From: an uncultured Planktomarina sp.
GTDB taxonomy: Bacteria; Pseudomonadota; Alphaproteobacteria; Rhodobacterales; Rhodobacteraceae
Direction of reading: 5' to 3'
Length of the DNA: 64,000 nt
NCBI GenBank assembly: GCA_905182325.1
Contig: CAJJBD010000004.1
Coordinates: forward strand, 88,474-152,473
Shown here: positions 25,413 through 36,319 of the stretch, piece by piece
Layout of the letters: each line of letters begins with the position of its first letter
Numbering within the stretch: the first letter of the stretch is position 1
Translations under genes and position numbers: made by a program
Notes under the pieces: generated by a model
The model's input: the letters and a program-made list of their open reading frames with translations, nothing else
Told to the model about the DNA's origin: nothing
The model's database searches: none

Positions 25413-28100
25413 TTAAGCAGCTTTGGCGAGTTTTCGAAGTACATAATGGAGAACTCCACCGTTCTCAATGTATTCAATTTCAACTTCTGTATCAATCCTG
25501 CATTTTAATGTAATTTTATGGACAGTCCCATCATTCATTTTAATTTCTGCGGGAACTTCCTGTAACGGTTTCACGCCTTCTAAATCTAAAATAGAGACTG
25601 TTTCATCACCTTTAAGGCCTAAGGTTAACCGACTATCGCCTTTTGTAAATTCAAAAGGAATAACCCCCATCCCAACAAGGTTTGAGCGATGTATCCGCTC
25701 AAAGCTTTCCGCAACCACGGCCTTCACACCCAAAAGTGCTGTGCCTTTCGCTGCCCAATCACGGCTGGAGCCAGCCCCATATTGTTCTCCACCAAATATA
25801 ACTAGAGGGGTGCCGTCTGCTTGATAAGCCATGGCTGCATCATAGATCGCCATTTGACTTCCATCCGGACCCAGTGTGTAACCGCCCTCAACACCATCAA
25901 GCATCTCATTTTTTATACGAATGTTGGCGAATGTGCCGCGCATCATTACCTGATGATTGCCACGTCTGGACCCATAGGAATTGAAGTCACGTGGGCTGAC
26001 CTGCTGTTCAACAAGATACTGCCCGGCAGGCGTAGTCTCTTTGAATGATCCTGCAGGCGAGATGTGGTCAGTTGTAATCATGTCACCTAAAATTGCCATA
26101 ACGTTGGCATCGATAAGGCTGGTAATCTTGTGGGTCTCCATTGTGATGCCTTGGAAATAGGGAGGATTTTGTACGTAGGTTGATGAAACGGGCCAATCAT
26201 ATGTCTTTTGCGTAGTTACTGCTACTCCTTGCCATTTTTCATCACCTTTGAAAACGTCAGCATATTTAGACAGGAAGGCCTCACGGGTGACGGTGGCTTC
26301 AACTATTTCAGCTATCTCTTGTGTGCTGGGCCAGATATCCTTGAGGTAAACGTCGTTACCATTTTTGTCTTGAGCTATTACGTCAGTTGCTAAATTTATG
26401 TCTAAAGTTCCCGCTAATGCATACGCTACTACCAGCGGTGGCGAAGCAAGATAATTAGCTCTAACATCAGGTGAGATACGACCTTCAAAGTTGCGGTTGC
26501 CTGACAGAACAGCTGTTGCCACAAGGTCTCCATCAGAGATTGCAGTTGAAATTTCCTCCTGCAGTGGACCAGAGTTACCTATACAGGTTGCACAGCCATA
26601 ACCAACAAGGTTGAAGCCAATAGAATCTAAATCTTTTTGTAGATCTGCTGCTTCAAGATACGCAGAAACTACCTGTGATCCTGGTGCTAGCGACGTTTTC
26701 ACCCAAGGCTTTCGATTCAGTCCAAGCGCAGCAGCTTTACGCGCCACGAGACCTGCGCCGATCATAACGTATGGATTAGAAGTGTTCGTACAAGACGTAA
26801 TGGAGGCAATAACAACTTTACCAGATTCCATTGAATATGTTTCACCAGAAACATCAACTTTTTTACCCATTGGGCGTTTGAATGTTTTTTCCATCTCACT
26901 TCGAAAAGCATTTTTACCATCAGTCAACGCAACAAAATCCTGTGGTCGTTTAGGCCCTGATATTGCTGGTACGATGGTGCTCATATCGAGGTGAAGCGTA
27001 TTCGTATAAATTGGCGAATAATTATTGTCCCGCCAGAAACCGTTTTCCTTTGCATATGCCTTTACTAATGCAATGCGGGTCTCATCTCGGCCAGTTCCGT
27101 GAAGGTATTTAATCGTTTCGTTATCGATAGGAAAAAACCCACATGTAGCGCCATATTCAGGAGCCATATTAGCAATTGTTGCGCGATCAGCTAATGGTAG
27201 GTTGTCTAGACCTGATCCGTAGAACTCCACAAACTTTCCAACAACGCCATAGGTCCTGAGAAGTTCGACTACTTTCAAAACGAGGTCCGTTCCAGTTGTG
27301 CCCTCTCGCGTTTCACCGGTTAGTTCAAAGCCAATAACCTCAGGGATTAACATTGAAATAGGTTGCCCGAGCATTGCTGCCTCAGCTTCAATTCCGCCTA
27401 CGCCCCACCCCAAAACGGCTACCCCATTTACCATTGTCGTGTGGCTGTCTGTACCAACCAGCGTATCAGGATAGGCAACTTGTTTGCCATTTTGGTCTGT
27501 ATCCAACCAAACTGTTTGTGATAAATACTCAAGATTAACCTGGTGGCAGATTCCTGTTCCTGGAGGGACAACTCGAAAGTTATCAAATGCTGATTGGCCC
27601 CATTTCAGAAACGTATATCGCTCCAGGTTGCGTTCGTATTCGCGGTCCACATTCATTTGAAACGCTCTTGGATTACCAAATTCGTCGATCATAACAGAGT
27701 GATCAATGACGAGATCAACGGGATTTAGCGGATTAATTTTTTCTGGATCTCCGCCTAGAGCTACAATTCCGTCCCGCATTGCTGCTAAATCTACTACGGC
27801 CGGCACCCCCGTAAAATCTTGCATTAAAACACGAGCTGGACGGTACGCTATTTCACGTGGATTTTTGCCTCCACTGGCTCCCCATTCAGCGAACGCTTTT
27901 ATGTCCTCAATTGAAACAGTTTTTCCATCCTCAAAGCGCAACATATTTTCTAAAACCACTTTCAAAACAGCGGGTAGACGGGAAAAGTCTCCTAGTCCTG
28001 CCTCTTGCGCGGCTGGAATTGAATAATAATCAATATTTGTACTTCCGACAGTTAGTGTTCGACGCGTTTTGGCTGTGTCGTTGCCTACAACTACGGTCAT
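25413..28100 (-). CDS. acnA: aconitate hydratase A
   Basis: ARVLMQDFTGVP, SITSCTNTSNP, GYGCATCIGNSG, TTDHISPAG, GSSRDWAAKG; ATG at 28100. Confidence 0.97.
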   Translation of the reverse strand: MTVVVGNDTAKTRRTLTVGSTNIDYYSIPAAQEAGLGDFSRLPAVLKVVLENMLRFEDGKTVSIEDIKAFAEWGASGGKNPREIAYRPARVLMQDFTGVPAVVDLAAMRDGIVALGGDPEKINPLNPVDLVIDHSVMIDEFGNPRAFQMNVDREYERNLERYTFLKWGQSAFDNFRVVPPGTGICHQVNLEYLSQTVWLDTDQNGKQVAYPDTLVGTDSHTTMVNGVAVLGWGVGGIEAEAAMLGQPISMLIPEVIGFELTGETREGTTGTDLVLKVVELLRTYGVVGKFVEFYGSGLDNLPLADRATIANMAPEYGATCGFFPIDNETIKYLHGTGRDETRIALVKAYAKENGFWRDNNYSPIYTNTLHLDMSTIVPAISGPKRPQDFVALTDGKNAFRSEMEKTFKRPMGKKVDVSGETYSMESGKVVIASITSCTNTSNPYVMIGAGLVARKAAALGLNRKPWVKTSLAPGSQVVSAYLEAADLQKDLDSIGFNLVGYGCATCIGNSGPLQEEISTAISDGDLVATAVLSGNRNFEGRISPDVRANYLASPPLVVAYALAGTLDINLATDVIAQDKNGNDVYLKDIWPSTQEIAEIVEATVTREAFLSKYADVFKGDEKWQGVAVTTQKTYDWPVSSTYVQNPPYFQGITMETHKITSLIDANVMAILGDMITTDHISPAGSFKETTPAGQYLVEQQVSPRDFNSYGSRRGNHQVMMRGTFANIRIKNEMLDGVEGGYTLGPDGSQMAIYDAAMAYQADGTPLVIFGGEQYGAGSSRDWAAKGTALLGVKAVVAESFERIHRSNLVGMGVIPFEFTKGDSRLTLGLKGDETVSILDLEGVKPLQEVPAEIKMNDGTVHKITLKCRIDTEVEIEYIENGGVLHYVLRKLAKAA

Positions 28101-28296
28101 GAGAGTCTCCACTTTGGCTTTGAGGGCTACCGTCTGTTAACAGGAGGTTTAAGGCGGTTTCAAGGAAAAGAATAATTAAATGAGTCGATTCTTAAACTAA
28201 ACTGGGAACGCTGTTATTTAGGTAAATATTACTAAGAAAAACTAAACAATTTTTGTTTATGTATTGATTTTAAACGCTACTTTAATATGAGCTGTC

Positions 28297-29220
28297 CTAT
28301 TCTACAAGTTCACTAGCATCTACATTACCTTTGGGATGGTATTTCCACCGGCGGTGGATCCAGAACCAATTCCCAGGGTCTTTTTTAATACGCAATTCAA
28401 GAGACTTAGTTGCTTCCTTAGTCATTGTTAGGGGGTCTGAGTGTTTTATGGGTCTCCCAATTTCGACACTGAAACTTATCGAGTCTGGGTTTCGCATCGA
28501 AAAGTAAGGTAGAAAAAGTGCATTAGATTTCAGGGCAAAGGAGGCTGCTGTTAATGCGGTTCGTGCTGGTTGGCCTAAGAAACTTAGAAATGGCCCATCG
28601 GGCACTGCAAGGTCAATTAGTAAAGCTAAGGTTGCTCCACGTTTCAATGCTCTATAAAAGCCAAGAGTTCCTTTAACACCTGGTAGAAAGACTGGGCCAG
28701 ACCTTCCTTCAATTAGTAGTGTTTTCTGATAGTGATAATCAAAGTATGGATTTGACATTGGTCTTATCAAGCCCCCCACTTTAATTCCGTGTTTATATAA
28801 TGCGGCGCGAAAGGCTTCATGATTTCCGAAATGACCTGAAAAAAATATGACAGGGCGACCATTGGAATGCGCTTTTAAAAGGTTTTCTAGACCATCACCC
28901 CAAAGTTCAATCTTAGGGTTTTGAGCTTGAAATTCAGCTGGATACATATTTTCTAAAAAGGTACGGCCCGCATTATCAAGTACTTGGTTGGCAATTTTAG
29001 ATTTTTGTTTATCCGAAAGATCTGGATAGATTAAATTTAGGTTATTTAAAGTTCGTTTTTTGTATCCAGTTATGTGGCCCAAGGGTCCCCGTAGTAATGC
29101 CCCCATCAGCCTATGACGATATAAATATGGGAGTTGTCTCATACATCGAAAAAATAACATCAGAATTTGGCTGGATAGCCATTCTTTAAATGTTCCAACT
29201 TTATTAGTTGTATCAGTCAT
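28297..29220 (-). CDS. lipid A lauroyl/lysophospholipid acyltransferase (HtrB/LpxL family)
   Basis: SGHFGNHE acyltransferase motif, C-terminal PGNWFWIHRRWK; ATG overlaps the upstream DMT stop. Confidence 0.88.
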   Translation of the reverse strand: MTDTTNKVGTFKEWLSSQILMLFFRCMRQLPYLYRHRLMGALLRGPLGHITGYKKRTLNNLNLIYPDLSDKQKSKIANQVLDNAGRTFLENMYPAEFQAQNPKIELWGDGLENLLKAHSNGRPVIFFSGHFGNHEAFRAALYKHGIKVGGLIRPMSNPYFDYHYQKTLLIEGRSGPVFLPGVKGTLGFYRALKRGATLALLIDLAVPDGPFLSFLGQPARTALTAASFALKSNALFLPYFSMRNPDSISFSVEIGRPIKHSDPLTMTKEATKSLELRIKKDPGNWFWIHRRWKYHPKGNVDASELVE

Positions 29221-30086
29221 TTTTTTATTTTGGCCTCGGCTAGTCTCTCTCGATACCAAACATATACACCCGCACTGACAATAATGATTGCGCCAAGTAA
29301 AGTTATTACATCTGGAATTTCGCCAAAAATTACAATTCCAAAAATAATTGCGAAGAGTAGTCCCGCATATCCAAATGGTGCGATGTCACTGGCTTGTGCT
29401 ATGGCAAGAGCTTGAATGATAAATAAGTGACCAAGAATACCCAATAAAATCAACGCTACTAAAATAGGTATATCGTTGTAAGCAATTGGTTGCCAAAAAA
29501 ATGGAACAATTAGGGATGCAAAACACGACCCAAAAACCCCCTGATAAAACAGAGCCTTCCAGGGCCCATCACCTCTAACAAAACGTGTAGCCAGTGCATA
29601 AATAGTAAAAAAAACTGCCCCAATAAACGGTAGTAACGACAATGTCGTCATTACAGATGTACCAGGTCGGATTAAGATTATTGCGCCAATAAATGCAGCG
29701 ATAATACCAAAAATCCGTCGTTTTCCTATTCGTTCTCTTAGCACTAAAACTGCGCCTAAGGTAACCATCACAGGTGCCACTTGCATTAAAGCAGTCGCAT
29801 CAGCCAAAGGCAGGTAAATTATCGCAAGGAAAAATAGGTAACTACTTACTGTTGTCGAAAAACCCCGCAGTGCATGCAGGCGAAAGTGATTACTACCCAG
29901 CAAAGATTGGCCTGAAATTATAAGAAATAAACCTATTATAATAGCTTGTGAGACGAAACGCAGCCACACAATTTGAGCGACTGGAACAATATGTCCAAGC
30001 ATCTTGGCCATGACATCCATAGATGCCATGCAGAATACCCCTGAAATCATCCATAATGCCCCGCGTTGGGCCATGGTCAATTTCAT
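29217..30086 (-). CDS. DMT/EamA family transporter
   Basis: 10 TM helices, two EamA repeats, LPLADATA, LIRPG, IAPFGY, FGEIPD. Confidence 0.9.
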   Translation of the reverse strand: MKLTMAQRGALWMISGVFCMASMDVMAKMLGHIVPVAQIVWLRFVSQAIIIGLFLIISGQSLLGSNHFRLHALRGFSTTVSSYLFFLAIIYLPLADATALMQVAPVMVTLGAVLVLRERIGKRRIFGIIAAFIGAIILIRPGTSVMTTLSLLPFIGAVFFTIYALATRFVRGDGPWKALFYQGVFGSCFASLIVPFFWQPIAYNDIPILVALILLGILGHLFIIQALAIAQASDIAPFGYAGLLFAIIFGIVIFGEIPDVITLLGAIIIVSAGVYVWYRERLAEAKIKK

Positions 30087-30727
30087 ACTGGCGCTCTTGG
30101 AAGTCCGACACCAATCATACTATCGCGCGTAACCCAATTGGCTAGTAATGTCTCAGACACTCCGTTGGCCTCAGCTGGCTTTGCTGGTAGGACGAGATAT
30201 CGCATGTCTGCGGTACTATCATGCACCCGTACTTGAACATCTGGTGCAATCTCAACGCCAAACTCAGATAAAACCTTGCGTGGTTCAACAACTGTACGCG
30301 ATCGATAAGCCCGCGACTTATACCAATCAGGTGGCAGTCCCAAAAGGTTGCGTGGATAGCAAGAGCATAGGGTACAGACCACAACATTATGCACTGAGTT
30401 AGTATTTTCGACCACAATTAACTGCATTGGTCCTATATCAAAGCCCATATCTCGGGAGGTTTGGCCCGCATTAGTCAGCAGGGCAGCTTTAAACTGAGGG
30501 TCAGTCCAGGCACGCGCAACAATAGTAGCTCCATTAGCAGGGCTGCGGGCATCCATTCTATTGATTTGTTCGTGGACTTGAGAGGCGCTAATATGACCTT
30601 TTTCAATTAATAACTCTCTGACTGCAATTTCCATCACCTGCCAGTAGCTGAGCTTAGTGTCATCATCTGCGCGAAAAGGGTGGCCTGAAGATGATAGTGG
30701 CTCATCATTTTGATGGTCATGCGGCAT
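30083..30727 (-). CDS. nitrile hydratase alpha / thiocyanate hydrolase gamma (ScnC)-like cobalt-binding subunit
   Basis: VVCTLCSCYPR metal-binding motif, ARAWTDP.FK, VHDSTAD.RY.VLP, VTRDSMIG; ATG 30727 overlaps the upstream TAA. Confidence 0.92.
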   Translation of the reverse strand: MPHDHQNDEPLSSSGHPFRADDDTKLSYWQVMEIAVRELLIEKGHISASQVHEQINRMDARSPANGATIVARAWTDPQFKAALLTNAGQTSRDMGFDIGPMQLIVVENTNSVHNVVVCTLCSCYPRNLLGLPPDWYKSRAYRSRTVVEPRKVLSEFGVEIAPDVQVRVHDSTADMRYLVLPAKPAEANGVSETLLANWVTRDSMIGVGLPRAPV

Positions 30728-30984
30728 TATACAGGTTCCAACCAATGAGTGTAAATTTCAGCTTCAATCACATCATCAGGAGTTTCTGCACCATCACCCC
30801 AAACTTCAGCCATGGTAAAGCGCACGCGTACTAAAGCACGCTGCTCTGAGGCAAGGCGATAAGCATTTTGCTCTGGATTATTGAACAAGCCAATTTCACG
30901 CTCAATCTCACCCTGTTTTCCTCGAAGATAGGCTGGTGTTCGGATGTGTCCGGGAGGCCAGTGGCTATGAACGCGCACTTTCAT
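30727..30984 (-). CDS. NHase beta C-terminal (SH3-like) / ScnA-like subunit
   Basis: GHIRTPAYLRGKQGEI, VRF...EVWG, EIYTHWLEP motifs. Confidence 0.87.
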   Translation of the reverse strand: MKVRVHSHWPPGHIRTPAYLRGKQGEIEREIGLFNNPEQNAYRLASEQRALVRVRFTMAEVWGDGAETPDDVIEAEIYTHWLEPV

Positions 30985-31313
30985 GTTGCGTCTCCGTAAG
31001 TAGAGCCGCGCGCTTTCACTTGTGCCATTTTTCTTGCCAATTCAGCAGTAGAAAATGCACCAACTTCAATCATATTTTGTCCAACTGAAGCGATCCAGCG
31101 CTCATAATAGCTCATAGCCTCATAAGCCTCTTCGCCCATATCTTCGAGCACTCGACGTAAGCTGTCAGTATTCATTAAACCAGCTGTAGAGGCTAGTACC
31201 ATAAGAGCGTCAACGCGTTTTTCCCAAAGAGCAAAATCATGTTGATCGTAGCTAATTTTGCCGGCTGGGTCGCCACCCATGTCATGCCATCTTTTTCCAA
31301 AAAACTCTGTCAT
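30981..31313 (-). CDS. NHase beta N-terminal / ScnB-like subunit
   Basis: WHDMGG, WEKRVDA, LRR..EDMG...Y..MSYYERW; ATG at 31313. Confidence 0.87.
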   Translation of the reverse strand: MTEFFGKRWHDMGGDPAGKISYDQHDFALWEKRVDALMVLASTAGLMNTDSLRRVLEDMGEEAYEAMSYYERWIASVGQNMIEVGAFSTAELARKMAQVKARGSTYGDAT

Positions 31314-31442
31314 TCTGCAAAAATAGGCATGGACCCTGTAATTGTCCAGCACCGCTGAACCTGATTTACTTATTATCGTGATTAACTAATTTGATACGAT
31401 AAAACATTTTATTTATAACGTGTAAAAGATTCAGATTTGTTA

Positions 31443-32747
31443 TTAGCTTTCAAACACACGTTCAAAAATAGTTTCAACATGTTTGGTGTGATAGGCCAAA
31501 TCAAATTGGCTTTCGACCTCCGCCACTGACATAACTGACATAACTTCTGGATCATTCTTAAGCTCAGTTAAGAAATCAGCACCTTGTTCCCAGACTCGCA
31601 TTGCATTGCGCTGCACTAGGCTATAACTTTCTTCTCTTCCCAATCCTTTTTGAGTGAGTGCTAGCAAAACCCGTTGCGAATGTACAAGGCCCCTGAATTT
31701 ATTCATGTTCGAAATCATATTATCTGGATAAATTACTAAGTTATTAATTACGCCAGTCAGGCGGGACAAGGCAAAATCAAGAGTAATTGTTGCATCGGGA
31801 CCGATGGCACGCTCAACTGAGCTGTGTGAAATATCTCGTTCATGCCAGAGCGCCACGTTTTCCATAGCTGGCAAAACACACATTCGTACAAGGCGGGACA
31901 GGCCAGTGAGGTTTTCGGTCAATACTGGGTTGCGTTTGTGGGGCATTGCGGAGCTGCCCTTTTGGCCTTTAGAAAAAAATTCTTCTGCCTCTAAAACTTC
32001 TGTGCGTTGCATGTGACGTATCTCGATGGCGATATTCTCAATCGAGCTCGCTACAATCCCCAAAGTTGCAAAAAATGCGGCATGGCGATCGCGTGGGATT
32101 ACTTGGGTACTGATAGGCTCTGCTTTGAGGCCCAGTTGCGAACACACATGCTCTTCGACAAATGGATCAATATTTGCAAATGTGCCTACGGCGCCAGAAA
32201 TAGCACCAGTGGAGATCTCACTGCGTGCTGTACGCATACGTGCCAAGTTACGATCCATTTCAGCGTAAAACCTAGCAAAGGTTAAACCCATGGTAACGGG
32301 TTCTGCATGGATTGCATGGCTGCGGCCAATGCGAATTGTGTTTTTGTGTTCGATAGCACGACGCTTTAATGCTTTTAGTAGTGCTTCGATATCAGCAATT
32401 AGGATATTTGAGGCGCGGGTTAATTGTACGTTGAGAGTAGTGTCCAACACGTCTGAACTGGTCATGCCTTGATGGACAAAGCGAGCGTCATCACTACCAA
32501 TAATTTCTGACAAGTGTGTCAGAAAAGCAATCACATCATGTTTTGTTATGGCCTCAATTTCATTTATTCGTGCAACGTCAAATTCAACATCTTTAACCTT
32601 CCAAACTGCATCTGCATTAGCCTGTGGAATAACACCCAGCTTGGCTTGCGCATCGCAAGCGTGCGCCTCAATTTCATACCAAATACGAAATTTAGCAGAG
32701 GGTGACCAAATAGAGACCATTTCAGGGCGAGAATAACGTTCGATCAT
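31443..32747 (-). CDS. purB: adenylosuccinate lyase
   Basis: TKHDVIAF, GRSHAIHAEP, SSAMPHKRNP signature. Confidence 0.97.
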   Translation of the reverse strand: MIERYSRPEMVSIWSPSAKFRIWYEIEAHACDAQAKLGVIPQANADAVWKVKDVEFDVARINEIEAITKHDVIAFLTHLSEIIGSDDARFVHQGMTSSDVLDTTLNVQLTRASNILIADIEALLKALKRRAIEHKNTIRIGRSHAIHAEPVTMGLTFARFYAEMDRNLARMRTARSEISTGAISGAVGTFANIDPFVEEHVCSQLGLKAEPISTQVIPRDRHAAFFATLGIVASSIENIAIEIRHMQRTEVLEAEEFFSKGQKGSSAMPHKRNPVLTENLTGLSRLVRMCVLPAMENVALWHERDISHSSVERAIGPDATITLDFALSRLTGVINNLVIYPDNMISNMNKFRGLVHSQRVLLALTQKGLGREESYSLVQRNAMRVWEQGADFLTELKNDPEVMSVMSVAEVESQFDLAYHTKHVETIFERVFES

Positions 32748-32964: not shown

Positions 32965-33408
32965 GTGACTACTGAAATTGAGGAAACCTTATTTAGTAGT
33001 AAAACTTTAATAGACTTTGAAGGCCGCATTTGGAACATCGAACGTGTTATAATCGACTATAAGCAATCTACAAAAACTATATACGGGGGACGCTGTGAAA
33101 TTTCTTCTGGTAAATATTTTGAAACAGGCCAATTAATATTGGCTGACGGACAAAAAATGCTTAGCACCAGGACGTATTACTGGAAATCCGTGGGGCAGGG
33201 AATAGACAGCTATTTTGATGATGGGAGCTTTTTTCACAGTATTAATTTGACCTGTTCGAGATCAATAGCCCACCATTTCTGTGCTGATGATGAATATGAA
33301 GTTCGATACGATTTCTCAAAATGGCCGCTGTGGGTGGCAAAATGGTGCGTTCGAGGGCCGAGAAAAGATTATGAGATGCACAGTTATTACTCTGAAATTT
33401 TAATTTGA
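32965..33408 (+). CDS. DUF6314-like hypothetical protein
   Basis: FDDGSFFH, HFCADDEY, W..W...W.V.GPRKDY.M.S.Y pattern. Confidence 0.7.
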   Translation: MTTEIEETLFSSKTLIDFEGRIWNIERVIIDYKQSTKTIYGGRCEISSGKYFETGQLILADGQKMLSTRTYYWKSVGQGIDSYFDDGSFFHSINLTCSRSIAHHFCADDEYEVRYDFSKWPLWVAKWCVRGPRKDYEMHSYYSEILI

Positions 33409-33473: not shown

Positions 33474-34076
33474 ATGACAACAGCAATCCATAAAAGTGTT
33501 CTTAGTGAAGTAATTCTGCCCCGTGATGGTCGTCAGGCTAAGCTCGTTAAGCAAATAGCGTTGGTTTTGGTTGGGGTTATGCTTCTTATATTATCCGCAA
33601 AAATAAAAATTCCAATGATCCCAGTGCCGATGACTATGGGGACATTCGCAGTCTTGAGTATTGGTGCTGTTTACGGCCCCCGTTTGGGGCTTATGACTAT
33701 TATTGGTTACATGATTGTTGGGGCCCTGGGTTTTGATGTTTTTGCTAGCTCATCTTCTGAGAAGTTTGGTGTTTCATATATGATGGGAAGTACCGGTGGC
33801 TATTTAGTGGGGTATGTACTTGCCATTTTGGTTTTAGGTTGGACTGCCCGCCAAGGATGGGACCGCTCAATACTTAAGATGGCTGCTGCGATGGTTCTTG
33901 GAAATGTAATTATCTATGTTCCCGGACTTCTTTGGCTCGCTACTCTATACGGTTGGGATCAACCAATTTTGACCTGGGGCCTCACTCCGTTTTTAGTGGG
34001 AGATCTTGTGAAATTAGGCTTGGCTGCGTTACTACTTCCTGGTGCTTGGCGTTTGGTTGATAAGGCTACCAAATAA
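33474..34076 (+). CDS. bioY: biotin transporter BioY (solitary S component)
   Basis: PVPMTM, G.TGGYLVGY, GLTPFLVGD..K. Confidence 0.9.
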   Translation: MTTAIHKSVLSEVILPRDGRQAKLVKQIALVLVGVMLLILSAKIKIPMIPVPMTMGTFAVLSIGAVYGPRLGLMTIIGYMIVGALGFDVFASSSSEKFGVSYMMGSTGGYLVGYVLAILVLGWTARQGWDRSILKMAAAMVLGNVIIYVPGLLWLATLYGWDQPILTWGLTPFLVGDLVKLGLAALLLPGAWRLVDKATK

Positions 34077-34144: not shown

Positions 34145-35491
34145 TTAGGATTTAATTCCCATTAAGGCTTCATCAAATCCGTATTTGGTTAAGTTTTCAA
34201 AACCATCATCTGTTATTAATACCTGATCTTCCAATTTTATTGAGAAATCACCGCCTTCTGGAGAGACTAAGGCCTCAACACAGAGCACCATTCCCGCCTC
34301 AAGCTCATACTCAAACGCGCCATCAACAAGTTGATCTGGATAGGCAATTATTGGCCATTCATCGCATAGACCAACACCGTGCATCATGCAGCCGTACTTT
34401 TGTTTTTGATAATTTGCATGCAACTGGTGGCAGCTCTCTGATAAATTACGCATAGCAACACCAGGTGCCAGCAATTGCATATTTTGTTTTATGTGCTCCT
34501 GCGCATGTTGCATGGCTGCGATCATATCGGGGCGGGGCGCTTTGTCTCCAACCCACCAGCTTCGTGATATGTCAACGCAGATACCATAACTACCTACTAA
34601 ATCAGTATCAAAACTGACAATCTCGTTATTTTGAACCAATCTTGGTCCACATTCTTGAAACCAAGGATTTGTTCTTGGTCCTGATGCGAGAAGTCGTGTT
34701 TCTATCCATTCTCCTCCTCTTTTTATATTTTCTGCATGTAAGACTGCCCAAATATCATTTTCACTCATATTTCCAGATGGGACCCCATCACGTGTAGCAG
34801 TCTCCATTTTACCGACAGCAGTTTCACATGCGTGGCTGGCACAACGCATCGCTTTGATCTCATCTGGCCCTTTTATTACCCGTGCTTTTTCTGTTAACTC
34901 TTCACCTTCCAGCACTTCAAAGCCTTGCTCTTCCAGTGCACGCAGTCCGACCATCATAACTTTATCTACTGCGAGGCGTGGATTTCCACTGCTATGTTTG
35001 GCAACAAGATCCTTAACCTCTTGACTGAATTTTTTTGCGGCAATATGGGCCATATCTCCTCTGTCAAAGTAGAAAAAATCGGCGCCAGAACGTTGTTCGC
35101 GAACTAAAGGGTTGAATTCAGACAAGAATGGTGAGTTTTTATAGTCCCACATCACCATATATCCGTCAGCGCATACAATCAACGCGCGGAAAGGATTGTG
35201 AGTGTTCCAGAGTTGCATGTTCGTACTGTCGCTGGCGTAGCGAATATTAAGTGGATCGAAGACTAACAAAGCGCCATAGTTACGAGTGTTCACTCCATCG
35301 ACTAATCTCTTGTGACGAAATTTACGCATCGCTTGAAGATCTGGAAGTTTTAGTCCTGCTTGGGCCCACTCATCAAATGCAAGTTTAGTTGGCCCTATTT
35401 CTACGCGATCCATATCATTGGGAGTATTATCACCAGTAAAAAAACCTTTAGACGGGTCTATTTTACGAGTTTGGCTGAAGTTTACATTCAT
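34145..35491 (-). CDS. dddP: dimethylsulfoniopropionate lyase DddP (M24B fold)
   Basis: N-terminus RKIDP...TPNDMDRVEIGPT.LAF.EW, STNMQLWNTHNPFR, DTDLVG.YG.C.DISR, HGVGLCDEWP, IKLEDQ. Confidence 0.93.
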   Translation of the reverse strand: MNVNFSQTRKIDPSKGFFTGDNTPNDMDRVEIGPTKLAFDEWAQAGLKLPDLQAMRKFRHKRLVDGVNTRNYGALLVFDPLNIRYASDSTNMQLWNTHNPFRALIVCADGYMVMWDYKNSPFLSEFNPLVREQRSGADFFYFDRGDMAHIAAKKFSQEVKDLVAKHSSGNPRLAVDKVMMVGLRALEEQGFEVLEGEELTEKARVIKGPDEIKAMRCASHACETAVGKMETATRDGVPSGNMSENDIWAVLHAENIKRGGEWIETRLLASGPRTNPWFQECGPRLVQNNEIVSFDTDLVGSYGICVDISRSWWVGDKAPRPDMIAAMQHAQEHIKQNMQLLAPGVAMRNLSESCHQLHANYQKQKYGCMMHGVGLCDEWPIIAYPDQLVDGAFEYELEAGMVLCVEALVSPEGGDFSIKLEDQVLITDDGFENLTKYGFDEALMGIKS

Positions 35492-35590
35492 AGGGCACCT
35501 CCTAGCTATTAGAAGAGTTGCGTTTGAATGGGTGTTATGTCAGGTTCATTTGCGACATATTTTTATATTTATTATTTAGGGCGTGGCTTT

Positions 35591-36319
35591 ATGGTCGAAA
35601 TTTTACAGGACCGCGTTCCATATGATTTTTCGGCTAAAAAGCCTTTGCCTGGGTTATCGCCACTAGCACCAGATGGCTGGATAATAGAAGATGAAGCCTT
35701 CGCAGCTCAAATGGCCGAGCGTGATCGATTAATTTTTGAGATTCCGGAAAAGGTATTTTGTGATGCTGGGGCTTCGCTTGACGCAAAAATTGAAGTTTTG
35801 GACCAAATTTTGCACTTGTTACGAGGCCGTTCTAATTACAAAATTAGCCACACCCATGTTATTCGTCCTGATGGGATAACAGTAAAACTTGATGGTGATC
35901 CTCTACTAACGGCGGCCCGTTTGGTTCAGGAGGATCTATGCCTCCACGAAAAGAGTGGTGACGAACATATCTTAACAGCGGGGGTGTTGTGTTTTCCGGC
36001 TAGTTGGACCCTATCTGAAAAAGTGGGCCGCCCGCTAAGTGCGGTGCATGGCCCAGTTGTTGAGTACGATGAAAATATTGCAAAACGAGTTCAGCGGCTG
36101 TTTGATGGTATACAAAGTGGTCGCCCAGTGTGGCGTTTTAATCTATTACAATATGTCAGTTCGGAGCTTTATCAACCAAGGTATGAGGCGGATGCGCGCA
36201 GAATAGATCAAGACTATGGTAGTGGTGAGTATACGCGAACTGAGCATCAATCTCTTGTACGCATGCCAAAAACTGGTGCGGTGCTATTTTCAATTCATAC
36301 CTATGTTATAAAAACATGA
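35591..36319 (+). CDS. DUF3445 / heme-dependent oxidative N-demethylase alpha-like protein
   Basis: VQEDLC, LCFPASW...EK.G, HGPV, WRFN, R.EHQSL.R.PKTGAVLFSIHTY; ATG 35591 preferred. Confidence 0.85.
   Translation: MVEILQDRVPYDFSAKKPLPGLSPLAPDGWIIEDEAFAAQMAERDRLIFEIPEKVFCDAGASLDAKIEVLDQILHLLRGRSNYKISHTHVIRPDGITVKLDGDPLLTAARLVQEDLCLHEKSGDEHILTAGVLCFPASWTLSEKVGRPLSAVHGPVVEYDENIAKRVQRLFDGIQSGRPVWRFNLLQYVSSELYQPRYEADARRIDQDYGSGEYTRTEHQSLVRMPKTGAVLFSIHTYVIKT

Follow-up and report, generated by a model that had tools for sequence, protein, structure and literature searches.

A probable three-subunit, cobalt-type nitrile hydratase of a distinct alphaproteobacterial clade, placed upstream of resident backbone genes in a Planktomarina genome

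Nitrile hydratases (NHases) carry a claw of the form C-(T/S)-L-C-S-C, in which Thr marks the cobalt type. The beta subunit is a single fused chain in the classical cobalt enzymes and is divided over two small proteins in others, among them thiocyanate hydrolase (SCNase), whose gene order scnB-scnA-scnC we take to correspond to the order beta-N, beta-C, alpha. Three-subunit NHases are an already known and widespread kind of enzyme, having been characterised in Streptomyces. ScNHase of Streptomyces canus CGMCC 13662 (AnhD-AnhE-AnhA), the third characterised split-beta member, hydrates acetamiprid, thiacloprid and benzonitrile and does not hydrate indole-3-acetonitrile (IAN); the characterised three-subunit NHases work without an activator, and ToyJ of the toyocamycin NHase matures alone (PMC7329996). 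Here we analyse a stretch of 64,000 nucleotides from an uncultured Planktomarina sp. (GCA_905182325.1, contig CAJJBD010000004.1, positions 88,474 to 152,473), called the window throughout and used for all coordinates. It contains, at 28297-31313 on the minus strand, a five-gene array whose first three genes encode the beta-N, beta-C and alpha proteins of a split-beta NHase. A preliminary description of this array had named ToyJKL as the only characterised split-beta member besides SCNase, a count to which ScNHase has to be added.

With a probability of roughly 70%, the first three genes encode an activator-independent, three-subunit, cobalt-type NHase that belongs to a distinct alphaproteobacterial clade, and the two genes behind them, for a transporter and an acyltransferase, are residents of the site, so that the five genes do not form one pathway. 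The array comprises, in gene order:

30981..31313, minus strand: NHase beta-N, 110 aa (PF21006, 65 bits; TIGR03888 positions 3-102 of 226)
30727..30984, minus strand: NHase beta-C, SH3-like, 85 aa (PF02211, 64.5 bits; TIGR03888 positions 144-226)
30083..30727, minus strand: cobalt-type NHase alpha, 214 aa (PF02979, 250 bits)
29217..30086, minus strand: EamA/DMT-family transporter, 289 aa (PF00892, 92.6 bits)
28297..29220, minus strand: acyltransferase of the LpxL/HtrB family (lipid A biosynthesis type), 307 aa (PF03279, 121.7 bits)

All five proteins score well above the Pfam cut-offs, and beta-N and beta-C cover opposite ends of TIGR03888, the NCBIfam model of the NHase beta subunit. The open reading frames (ORFs) and the four stop/start junctions (ATGA at 30981-30984, TAATG at 30725-30729, ATGA at 30083-30086 and ATGA at 29217-29220) lie where the preliminary description had placed them, and its assignment of the trio to a three-subunit, split-beta, cobalt-type enzyme of the NHase family in the order beta-N, beta-C, alpha is borne out by the Pfam matches, the gene order and the motifs. 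The translations contain HDMGG...YYERW in beta-N, PPGHIRTPAYLRGK in beta-C and the cobalt-type claw VVCTLCSCY at residues 116-124 of alpha, where the cysteines of VCTLCSC run from Cys118 to Cys123. The source assembly comprises 1.9 Mb, is 78% complete and has a GC content of about 43%; it represents a streamlined genome of about 2.4 Mb.

The beta split recurs throughout the relatives of this locus. Among genomes scanned at one per species, 587 relatives of alpha were found and the best 80 loci kept; these span Planktomarina, Litoreibacter, Roseovarius, Jannaschia, Yoonia, Loktanella, Thalassovita, Anianabacter and others, and the closest at the NHase locus are Planktomarina metagenome-assembled genomes (MAGs). 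Culturable carriers include Yoonia maricola, Litoreibacter roseus and Thalassovita taeanensis. A further locus, L135 (genome G527), was left out of the analyses and enters only one tally from the phylum-wide sample described below. Wherever both halves are present (78/78 loci), beta-N and beta-C occupy separate frames that either overlap at stop and start or abut, which rules out an artefact as the source of the split. An insert of 450-710 nt lies between beta-N and beta-C in a Cognatiyoonia strain (L045:5238-5688) and in a Paracoccaceae MAG (L071:4974-5684).

To place this type among NHases more widely, we used an even sample of the family Rhodobacteraceae and a phylum-wide sample of 401 genomes. 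A split-type orthologue (at least 59% identity, full length) is present in about 16 of the 151 genera of the family sample, and a different alpha, with 45-56% identity, in about 60. When 20 of the non-orthologous family NHases were fetched, 19 proved to be classical, with alpha followed by a fused beta and the motif CSCYPW or CSCYPF; the remaining one (L102) is split and reads CSCYPR. Beyond the family, the best matches come from four further families of Alphaproteobacteria and are likewise split, with beta before alpha and Arg after the claw, and the others are fused and have W, F or H. In a maximum-likelihood tree of 64 alphas, with split sequences from five alphaproteobacterial families, a 100/99 branch parts 23 split/Arg sequences from 41 classical W/F/H sequences. 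In this clade a split beta therefore goes together with an invariant Arg after the claw and with beta-N, beta-C, alpha as the gene order, and the split is old and conserved and marks the clade apart from ordinary two-subunit NHases. The preliminary description had entertained the opposite outcome, in which the subunits group with two-subunit NHases and the relatives retain an intact beta gene; neither is what the tree and the 78 loci show. One locus inside the classical group of the tree, L142 (G518:C21:6427-9963), is split independently, with the order alpha, beta-N, beta-C and the pocket Trp kept, so that beta splitting has occurred more than once. A 7.7-kb contig binned as Luminiphilus, a gammaproteobacterium (L051, CAXQAV010000450.1), carries an NHase-acyltransferase-acnA locus whose alpha falls within Yoonia in the tree; mis-binning of a Rhodobacteraceae contig, not transfer, is the probable cause.

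We also ran a profile-free search with beta-N against 1.8 billion cluster representatives, which returned 862 clusters at E<=1e-3. Nearly all of the best 150 of these are 95-150 aa long, indicating that stand-alone beta-N is a large family. Its distant members bear hardly any names other than 'hypothetical protein' and 'nitrile hydratase subunit beta'. The top match in this library (P0121), 201 aa long and encoded on a single 920-bp metagenome contig, contains two stretches that resemble beta-N and may be a tandem duplication or a fusion of two beta-N units.

A dedicated activator appears to be missing from this type of enzyme. The accessory protein model TIGR03889 had no match in the present genome (G000, 78% complete) nor in two genomes that carry the split type only and are both 100% complete (G476 and G308), while as a positive control the same search found TIGR03889 in G111, G088 and G101, immediately next to their classical NHase genes. 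For the surroundings of the trio, all ORFs around 79 NHase loci were clustered. No conserved extra small gene was seen beside the trio in these 79 loci, and no amidase near it in any of them; the four amidase-family (PF01425) matches of the present genome all lie elsewhere. This points either to an unlinked amidase or to a substrate with a hydration product that decays spontaneously.

Scores against family models and structures were then compared for the three subunits. On the NCBIfam model nitrile_alph (TIGR01323), alpha reaches 234.7 bits and stays below the equivalog cut-off of 249.85; classical Rhodobacteraceae alphas reach 313-316 bits and split-clade alphas 209-261. On thiocyan_alph (TIGR03887) alpha reaches 190.1 bits, below the equivalog cut-off of 291.45, with 173-198 bits for classical alphas and 163-217 for those of the split clade. 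Taken together, the two models indicate that the split clade is divergent from textbook NHases and yet is not drawn to SCNase. Among PDB chains, alpha scores 199 bits with the Bacillus/Geobacillus Co-NHase, 164-178 with other Co-NHases, 163 with Fe-NHase and 146 with the gamma subunit of SCNase. In beta-C, GHIRTPAYLRGK aligns with residues 136-218 of the P. putida Co-NHase beta subunit, the best PDB match (51.6 bits), compared with 13 bits (E 1.3) for SCNase alpha. Only beta-N has SCNase as its top PDB match, by a marginal lead (33 bits for SCNase beta, 29 for NHase). An AlphaFold2 model of alpha alone matches NHase alpha chains with Z 12-13; this mediocre model (mean predicted local distance difference test 70.5, claw region <50) was used only for retrieving PDB titles.

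The residues expected to line the pocket differ from those of classical enzymes. Arg126 of alpha, three residues after the last claw cysteine, aligns with alphaTrp116 of the Pseudonocardia thermophila enzyme (PtNHase) and with gammaArg136 of SCNase, and it is invariant, as part of CSCYPR(N/D), in 81/81 clade members. Engineered variants at this position follow the same trend: the PtNHase entry 3VYH scores 168.0 bits with alpha and the wild type 164.4 (+3.6), while the SCNase entry 3VYG scores 142.8 bits and its wild type 146.5 (-3.7), the PDB titles confirming the two entries as aW116R and R136W, respectively. Two arginines, betaArg90 and gammaArg136, reportedly control the selectivity of SCNase; an equivalent of the latter is present here as Arg126, and the equivalent of the former is Leu52 of beta-N. 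In the HMMER alignments, Leu52-Arg53-Arg54 of beta-N stands opposite Arg90-Arg91-Arg92 of SCNase beta and opposite Phe-Arg-Ile of the B. smithii NHase, and YYERW (Tyr69/Tyr70, Arg72) opposite YYGRW of SCNase and YYGHW of classical enzymes. In the B. smithii NHase, the conserved beta Arg is the counterpart of Arg53 and the YY motif that of Tyr69/Tyr70; Arg54 and Arg72 are also common to SCNase. With Arg126 in alpha, with Arg54, Arg72 and Thr49 in beta-N and with Leu52 in place of Phe, the pocket is predicted to be more cationic and polar, and less aromatic, than the classical one. The natural substrate would then most likely be a nitrile that is small and either polar or negatively charged, serving as a source of nitrogen or carbon, and not a bulky hydrophobic one. 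Alpha further has an N-terminal extension (residues 1-34; window 30626-30727, minus strand) that is rich in His and Asp and conserved in the clade, with H16, P17, R19, D21, D23 and other residues invariant. It is absent from classical alphas and bears a weak likeness to the N-terminus of SCNase gamma, which begins HDHDHD (E 0.043); that it serves as a built-in tail for capturing the metal, presumably cobalt, is a guess.

A narrower and unlikely reading makes the enzyme a nitrogen-scavenging hydratase of pelagic roseobacters for heteroatom cyanides or small anionic nitriles (for example thiocyanate, cyanate-like compounds, cyanamide or cyano-carboxylates). The hydration products would release ammonium without a dedicated amidase, which would explain both why an amidase never travels with the trio and why the trio is retained in a streamlined genome of this size.

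A functional SCNase, converting SCN- to carbonyl sulfide (COS) and NH3, with gain of ammonium and release of COS, we consider decidedly improbable. The preliminary description had called the enzyme thiocyanate-hydrolase-like, and this holds for its architecture and for one of the two selectivity arginines: the three subunits come in scnB-scnA-scnC order, Arg126 matches gammaArg136, and beta-N has YYxRW and a double Arg where SCNase beta has YYGRW and RRR. The marginal lead of SCNase beta among the matches of beta-N and the start of alpha point the same way, and the lack of an amidase in the 79 loci is in keeping with a product that decays spontaneously to NH3. It does not hold for the rest. 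Alpha and beta-C are both nearer to Co-NHases in the PDB comparison, the TIGR03887 cut-off is missed by some 100 bits with classical alphas scoring alike, and Leu52 occupies the betaArg90 position. Furthermore, ScNHase is split and acts on neutral nitriles (PMC7329996), and a split beta subunit therefore does not imply SCN- as the substrate. Judged by these comparisons, the enzyme is not an SCNase orthologue and has what reads as a hybrid pocket. Turnover of SCN-, if it occurred after all, would make the enzyme a biological source of COS in the sea.

As the transporter and the acyltransferase are joined to the trio by stop/start overlaps, we asked whether they belong to it. Around the 79 NHase loci, FliG is encoded directly upstream in 32, the acyltransferase follows downstream in 61 and DUF1223 lies on the opposite strand in 43; acnA is found in 40, purB in 33 and the DMT gene, between alpha and the acyltransferase, in 21. 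No conserved partner of the trio from outside the backbone emerged from this survey, the recurrent neighbours being FliG upstream and DUF1223 and acnA downstream. An orthologue of the acyltransferase is present in 141/151 genera of the family sample whatever their NHase status. The acyltransferase locus was also fetched from 20 genomes without this NHase: the full backbone purB..fliG-[DMT]-acyltransferase-DUF1223(-)-acnA is found in 15 of these and lacks only purB in one more, and in 4/20 the DMT gene sits between fliG and the acyltransferase gene with no NHase at the site. This shows that the trio fills a slot upstream of a resident pair. The DMT and acyltransferase genes are resident backbone genes, neighbours of the NHase and not its partners. 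The survey of synteny between purB and acnA, proposed in the preliminary description, thus recovered the backbone in NHase-negative relatives and confirmed its suspicion that the acyltransferase is a mere resident. Its suggestion that the DMT protein moves substrate or product is undercut by the same result, since NHase-less relatives have the same DMT-acyltransferase pair at the same site. A second PF03279 (Lip_A_acyltrans) paralogue, 34% identical to the window copy, lies on another contig of the genome (G000:C29:24356-25138, L086); either copy may be the true lipid A secondary acyltransferase.

That all five genes nevertheless make up one functional unit is very unlikely, and the comparison of gene order already largely refutes it; in such a unit the DMT protein would take up the nitrile or else release the amide or acid, and the product would be modified by the acyltransferase. 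In favour of a unit stand the four overlaps, the lack of an internal terminator better than chance and the frequency with which the two genes follow alpha. However, the acyltransferase extends over many times the roughly 16 genera with this NHase, NHase-negative genomes keep it in place between fliG and DUF1223-acnA, and the DMT gene is about as frequent with NHase (21/79) as without (4/20). In G093, G043 and G042 the NHase lies far from the acyltransferase gene or on a different contig, and outside the Planktomarina group spacers of 20-150 nt part these genes.

Equally doubtful is a function as an IAN hydratase on the IAN route to the auxin indole-3-acetic acid (IAA). NHases of roseobacters have been read as part of this route, and gain of NHase correlates with marine Rhodobacteraceae (PMC5437341); the present organism is, moreover, of the pelagic, phytoplankton-associated type. 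That literature rests on annotation by Enzyme Commission and KEGG Orthology numbers, not on assays, and, going by our sample, it mainly concerns the classical type, most of the sampled Rhodobacteraceae NHases having the Trp pocket. The classical pocket Trp and Phe are Arg and Leu here, which would be poorly suited to indole; three-subunit ScNHase leaves IAN unhydrated, as noted above (PMC7329996), and neither an indole-3-acetamide hydrolase nor an amidase is linked to the trio at the 79 loci. Hardly credible, finally, is hydration of a 7-cyano-7-deazapurine, either preQ0 or a toyocamycin-like nucleoside, by an enzyme of the ToyJKL kind. Although the trio has the same three-Pfam architecture (PF02979, PF02211, PF21006) as the toyocamycin NHase of S. 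rimosus (bioRxiv 10.64898/2026.04.15.718813) and purB adjoins the array, purB is a housekeeping backbone gene present with or without NHase, and no deazapurine biosynthesis genes occur in any surveyed locus.

The favoured account remains a three-subunit, cobalt-type hydratase beside resident genes, and the trio is complete and conserved, with every catalytic residue of the family in place. By homology, the Cys-X-Leu-Cys-Ser-Cys claw of alpha would bind Co(III), with two of its cysteines oxidised to Cys-SO2H and Cys-SOH after translation; Arg53 of beta-N and the arginine of RTPxYxRG in beta-C would hold the oxidised cysteines, and attack on the nitrile carbon would then yield the amide. As for the array, the NHase cassette lies between fliG and the DMT/acyltransferase genes of the resident block; in the present streamlined genome, as in the Planktomarina group, fliG is gone and every spacer is reduced to a stop/start overlap, so that a shared transcript of the five genes is probable although they do not make up one pathway. 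In most relatives the flagellar switch gene fliG stands between purB and the NHase or acyltransferase gene; in this genome and the Planktomarina MAGs it is absent and purB adjoins the NHase genes (31314-31442 here; compare L031:1377-2432 and L108-L127); the absence of fliG is in turn consistent with a loss of motility genes during streamlining.

Several points weigh against this account and temper the probability given above. As alpha falls short of the TIGR01323 cut-off, its function may have diverged from that of textbook NHases. The register that sets Leu52 opposite betaArg90 is probable, being that of a HMMER alignment with a one-residue gap five residues downstream, and the proposed substrate class is read from pocket residues only. 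A phylogeny of all three subunits against ScnABC, ToyJKL and two-subunit NHases had been proposed at the outset; the tree that was built separates the split from the fused type, but it covers alpha only and contains no ScnABC, ToyJKL or AnhDEA sequences. The absence of an activator from a 78%-complete genome is weak evidence on its own. Co-transcription, too, is an inference, from the gene arrangement and from the one non-coding gap upstream. This spacer and the other genes around the array are:

31314..31442, minus strand: AT-rich spacer of 129 nt from the purB stop to the beta-N start, the sole upstream non-coding gap
31443-32747: purB, upstream of the array
25413-28112: acnA, downstream of the array
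32965-33408, plus strand: DUF6314 gene, between purB and dddP
33474-34076, plus strand: gene for a BioY biotin transporter component, between purB and dddP
34145-35491, minus strand: dddP, encoding the dimethylsulfoniopropionate lyase DddP (NF043017, 852 bits against a cut-off of 600)
35528-36319: HODM_asu-like gene (haem-dependent oxidative N-demethylase alpha-like, PF11927), adjoining dddP and divergent from it

The spacer between purB and beta-N is the likely promoter region, from which the five genes would probably be transcribed together. A scan of the spacer for promoters gave a weak promoter-like match only, no better than in shuffled sequences, and no Rfam element was found in it at E<=1. 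No internal terminator better than chance was detected in the array, terminator counts being no better than in shuffles. The presence of dddP about 3 kb from the array, claimed in the preliminary description, is confirmed by its NF043017 score. The DUF6314 and BioY genes have no evident tie to the NHase.

Altogether, the results show that the Rhodobacteraceae have two enzymes under the one name of nitrile hydratase: a classical type, the common one, whose pocket has Trp and which comes with an activator, and a rarer split-beta type, in about one in ten sampled genera, with an Arg pocket and no activator, which is unlikely to share the substrate of the former. This distinction matters because roseobacter NHase genes are often cited as a marine-specific trait and as evidence that auxin (IAA) is made in interactions between algae and bacteria, and the substrate of the split-beta enzyme bears on the use of marine dissolved organic nitrogen. 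The locus also calls for caution in inferring function from gene context, as stop/start overlaps in a streamlined genome can make an apparent operon of unrelated neighbours. What the present analysis adds to the known three-subunit NHases is the clean separation of the clade, the absence of the activator in a search with a working positive control, and the placement of the DMT and acyltransferase genes in the chromosomal backbone.

The locus resembles ToyJKL of Streptomyces rimosus, with which it was compared by architecture, in its three subunits, its set of three Pfam domains and its lack of an activator; ToyJKL differs in belonging to a deazapurine antibiotic cluster, without counterpart here, and in having a nucleoside as substrate. 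With ScnBAC of Thiobacillus thioparus (PDB 2DD4/2DD5) it shares the three subunits and their gene order, the cobalt-type claw, the Arg at the gammaArg136 position, YYxRW with adjacent arginines in beta-N and a His/Asp-rich N-terminus of the catalytic subunit. It differs from ScnBAC in that alpha and beta-C lie closer to the classical Co-NHases, the TIGR03887 score is far below the cut-off and Leu stands at the betaArg90 position; in addition, beta-N is without the N-terminal extension of about 40 residues found in SCNase beta, the match beginning at SCNase residue 46. The best overall sequence matches are with the classical Co-NHases (1IRE of Pseudonocardia thermophila, 2DPP of Bacillus RAPc8, 3QXE of P. 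putida, and the common Rhodobacteraceae type), which share the fold, the claw VCTLCSCYP, the catalytic beta Arg and Tyr and 41-47% identity in alpha. These have, in contrast, a fused beta subunit, mostly alpha before beta in Alphaproteobacteria, Trp, Phe or His after the claw and a dedicated TIGR03889 accessory protein next door, and on TIGR01323 they reach 313-316 bits compared with 235 here. ScNHase, compared by description only, likewise has beta as two small proteins and the order beta-N, beta-C, alpha; it is of the cobalt type and without an activator gene, and its subunits of about 10, 11 and 21 kDa compare with 110, 85 and 214 aa here. It is, however, an actinomycete enzyme of neutral nitriles, whereas the present clade is alphaproteobacterial and marine, and in it an invariant Arg replaces the pocket Trp.

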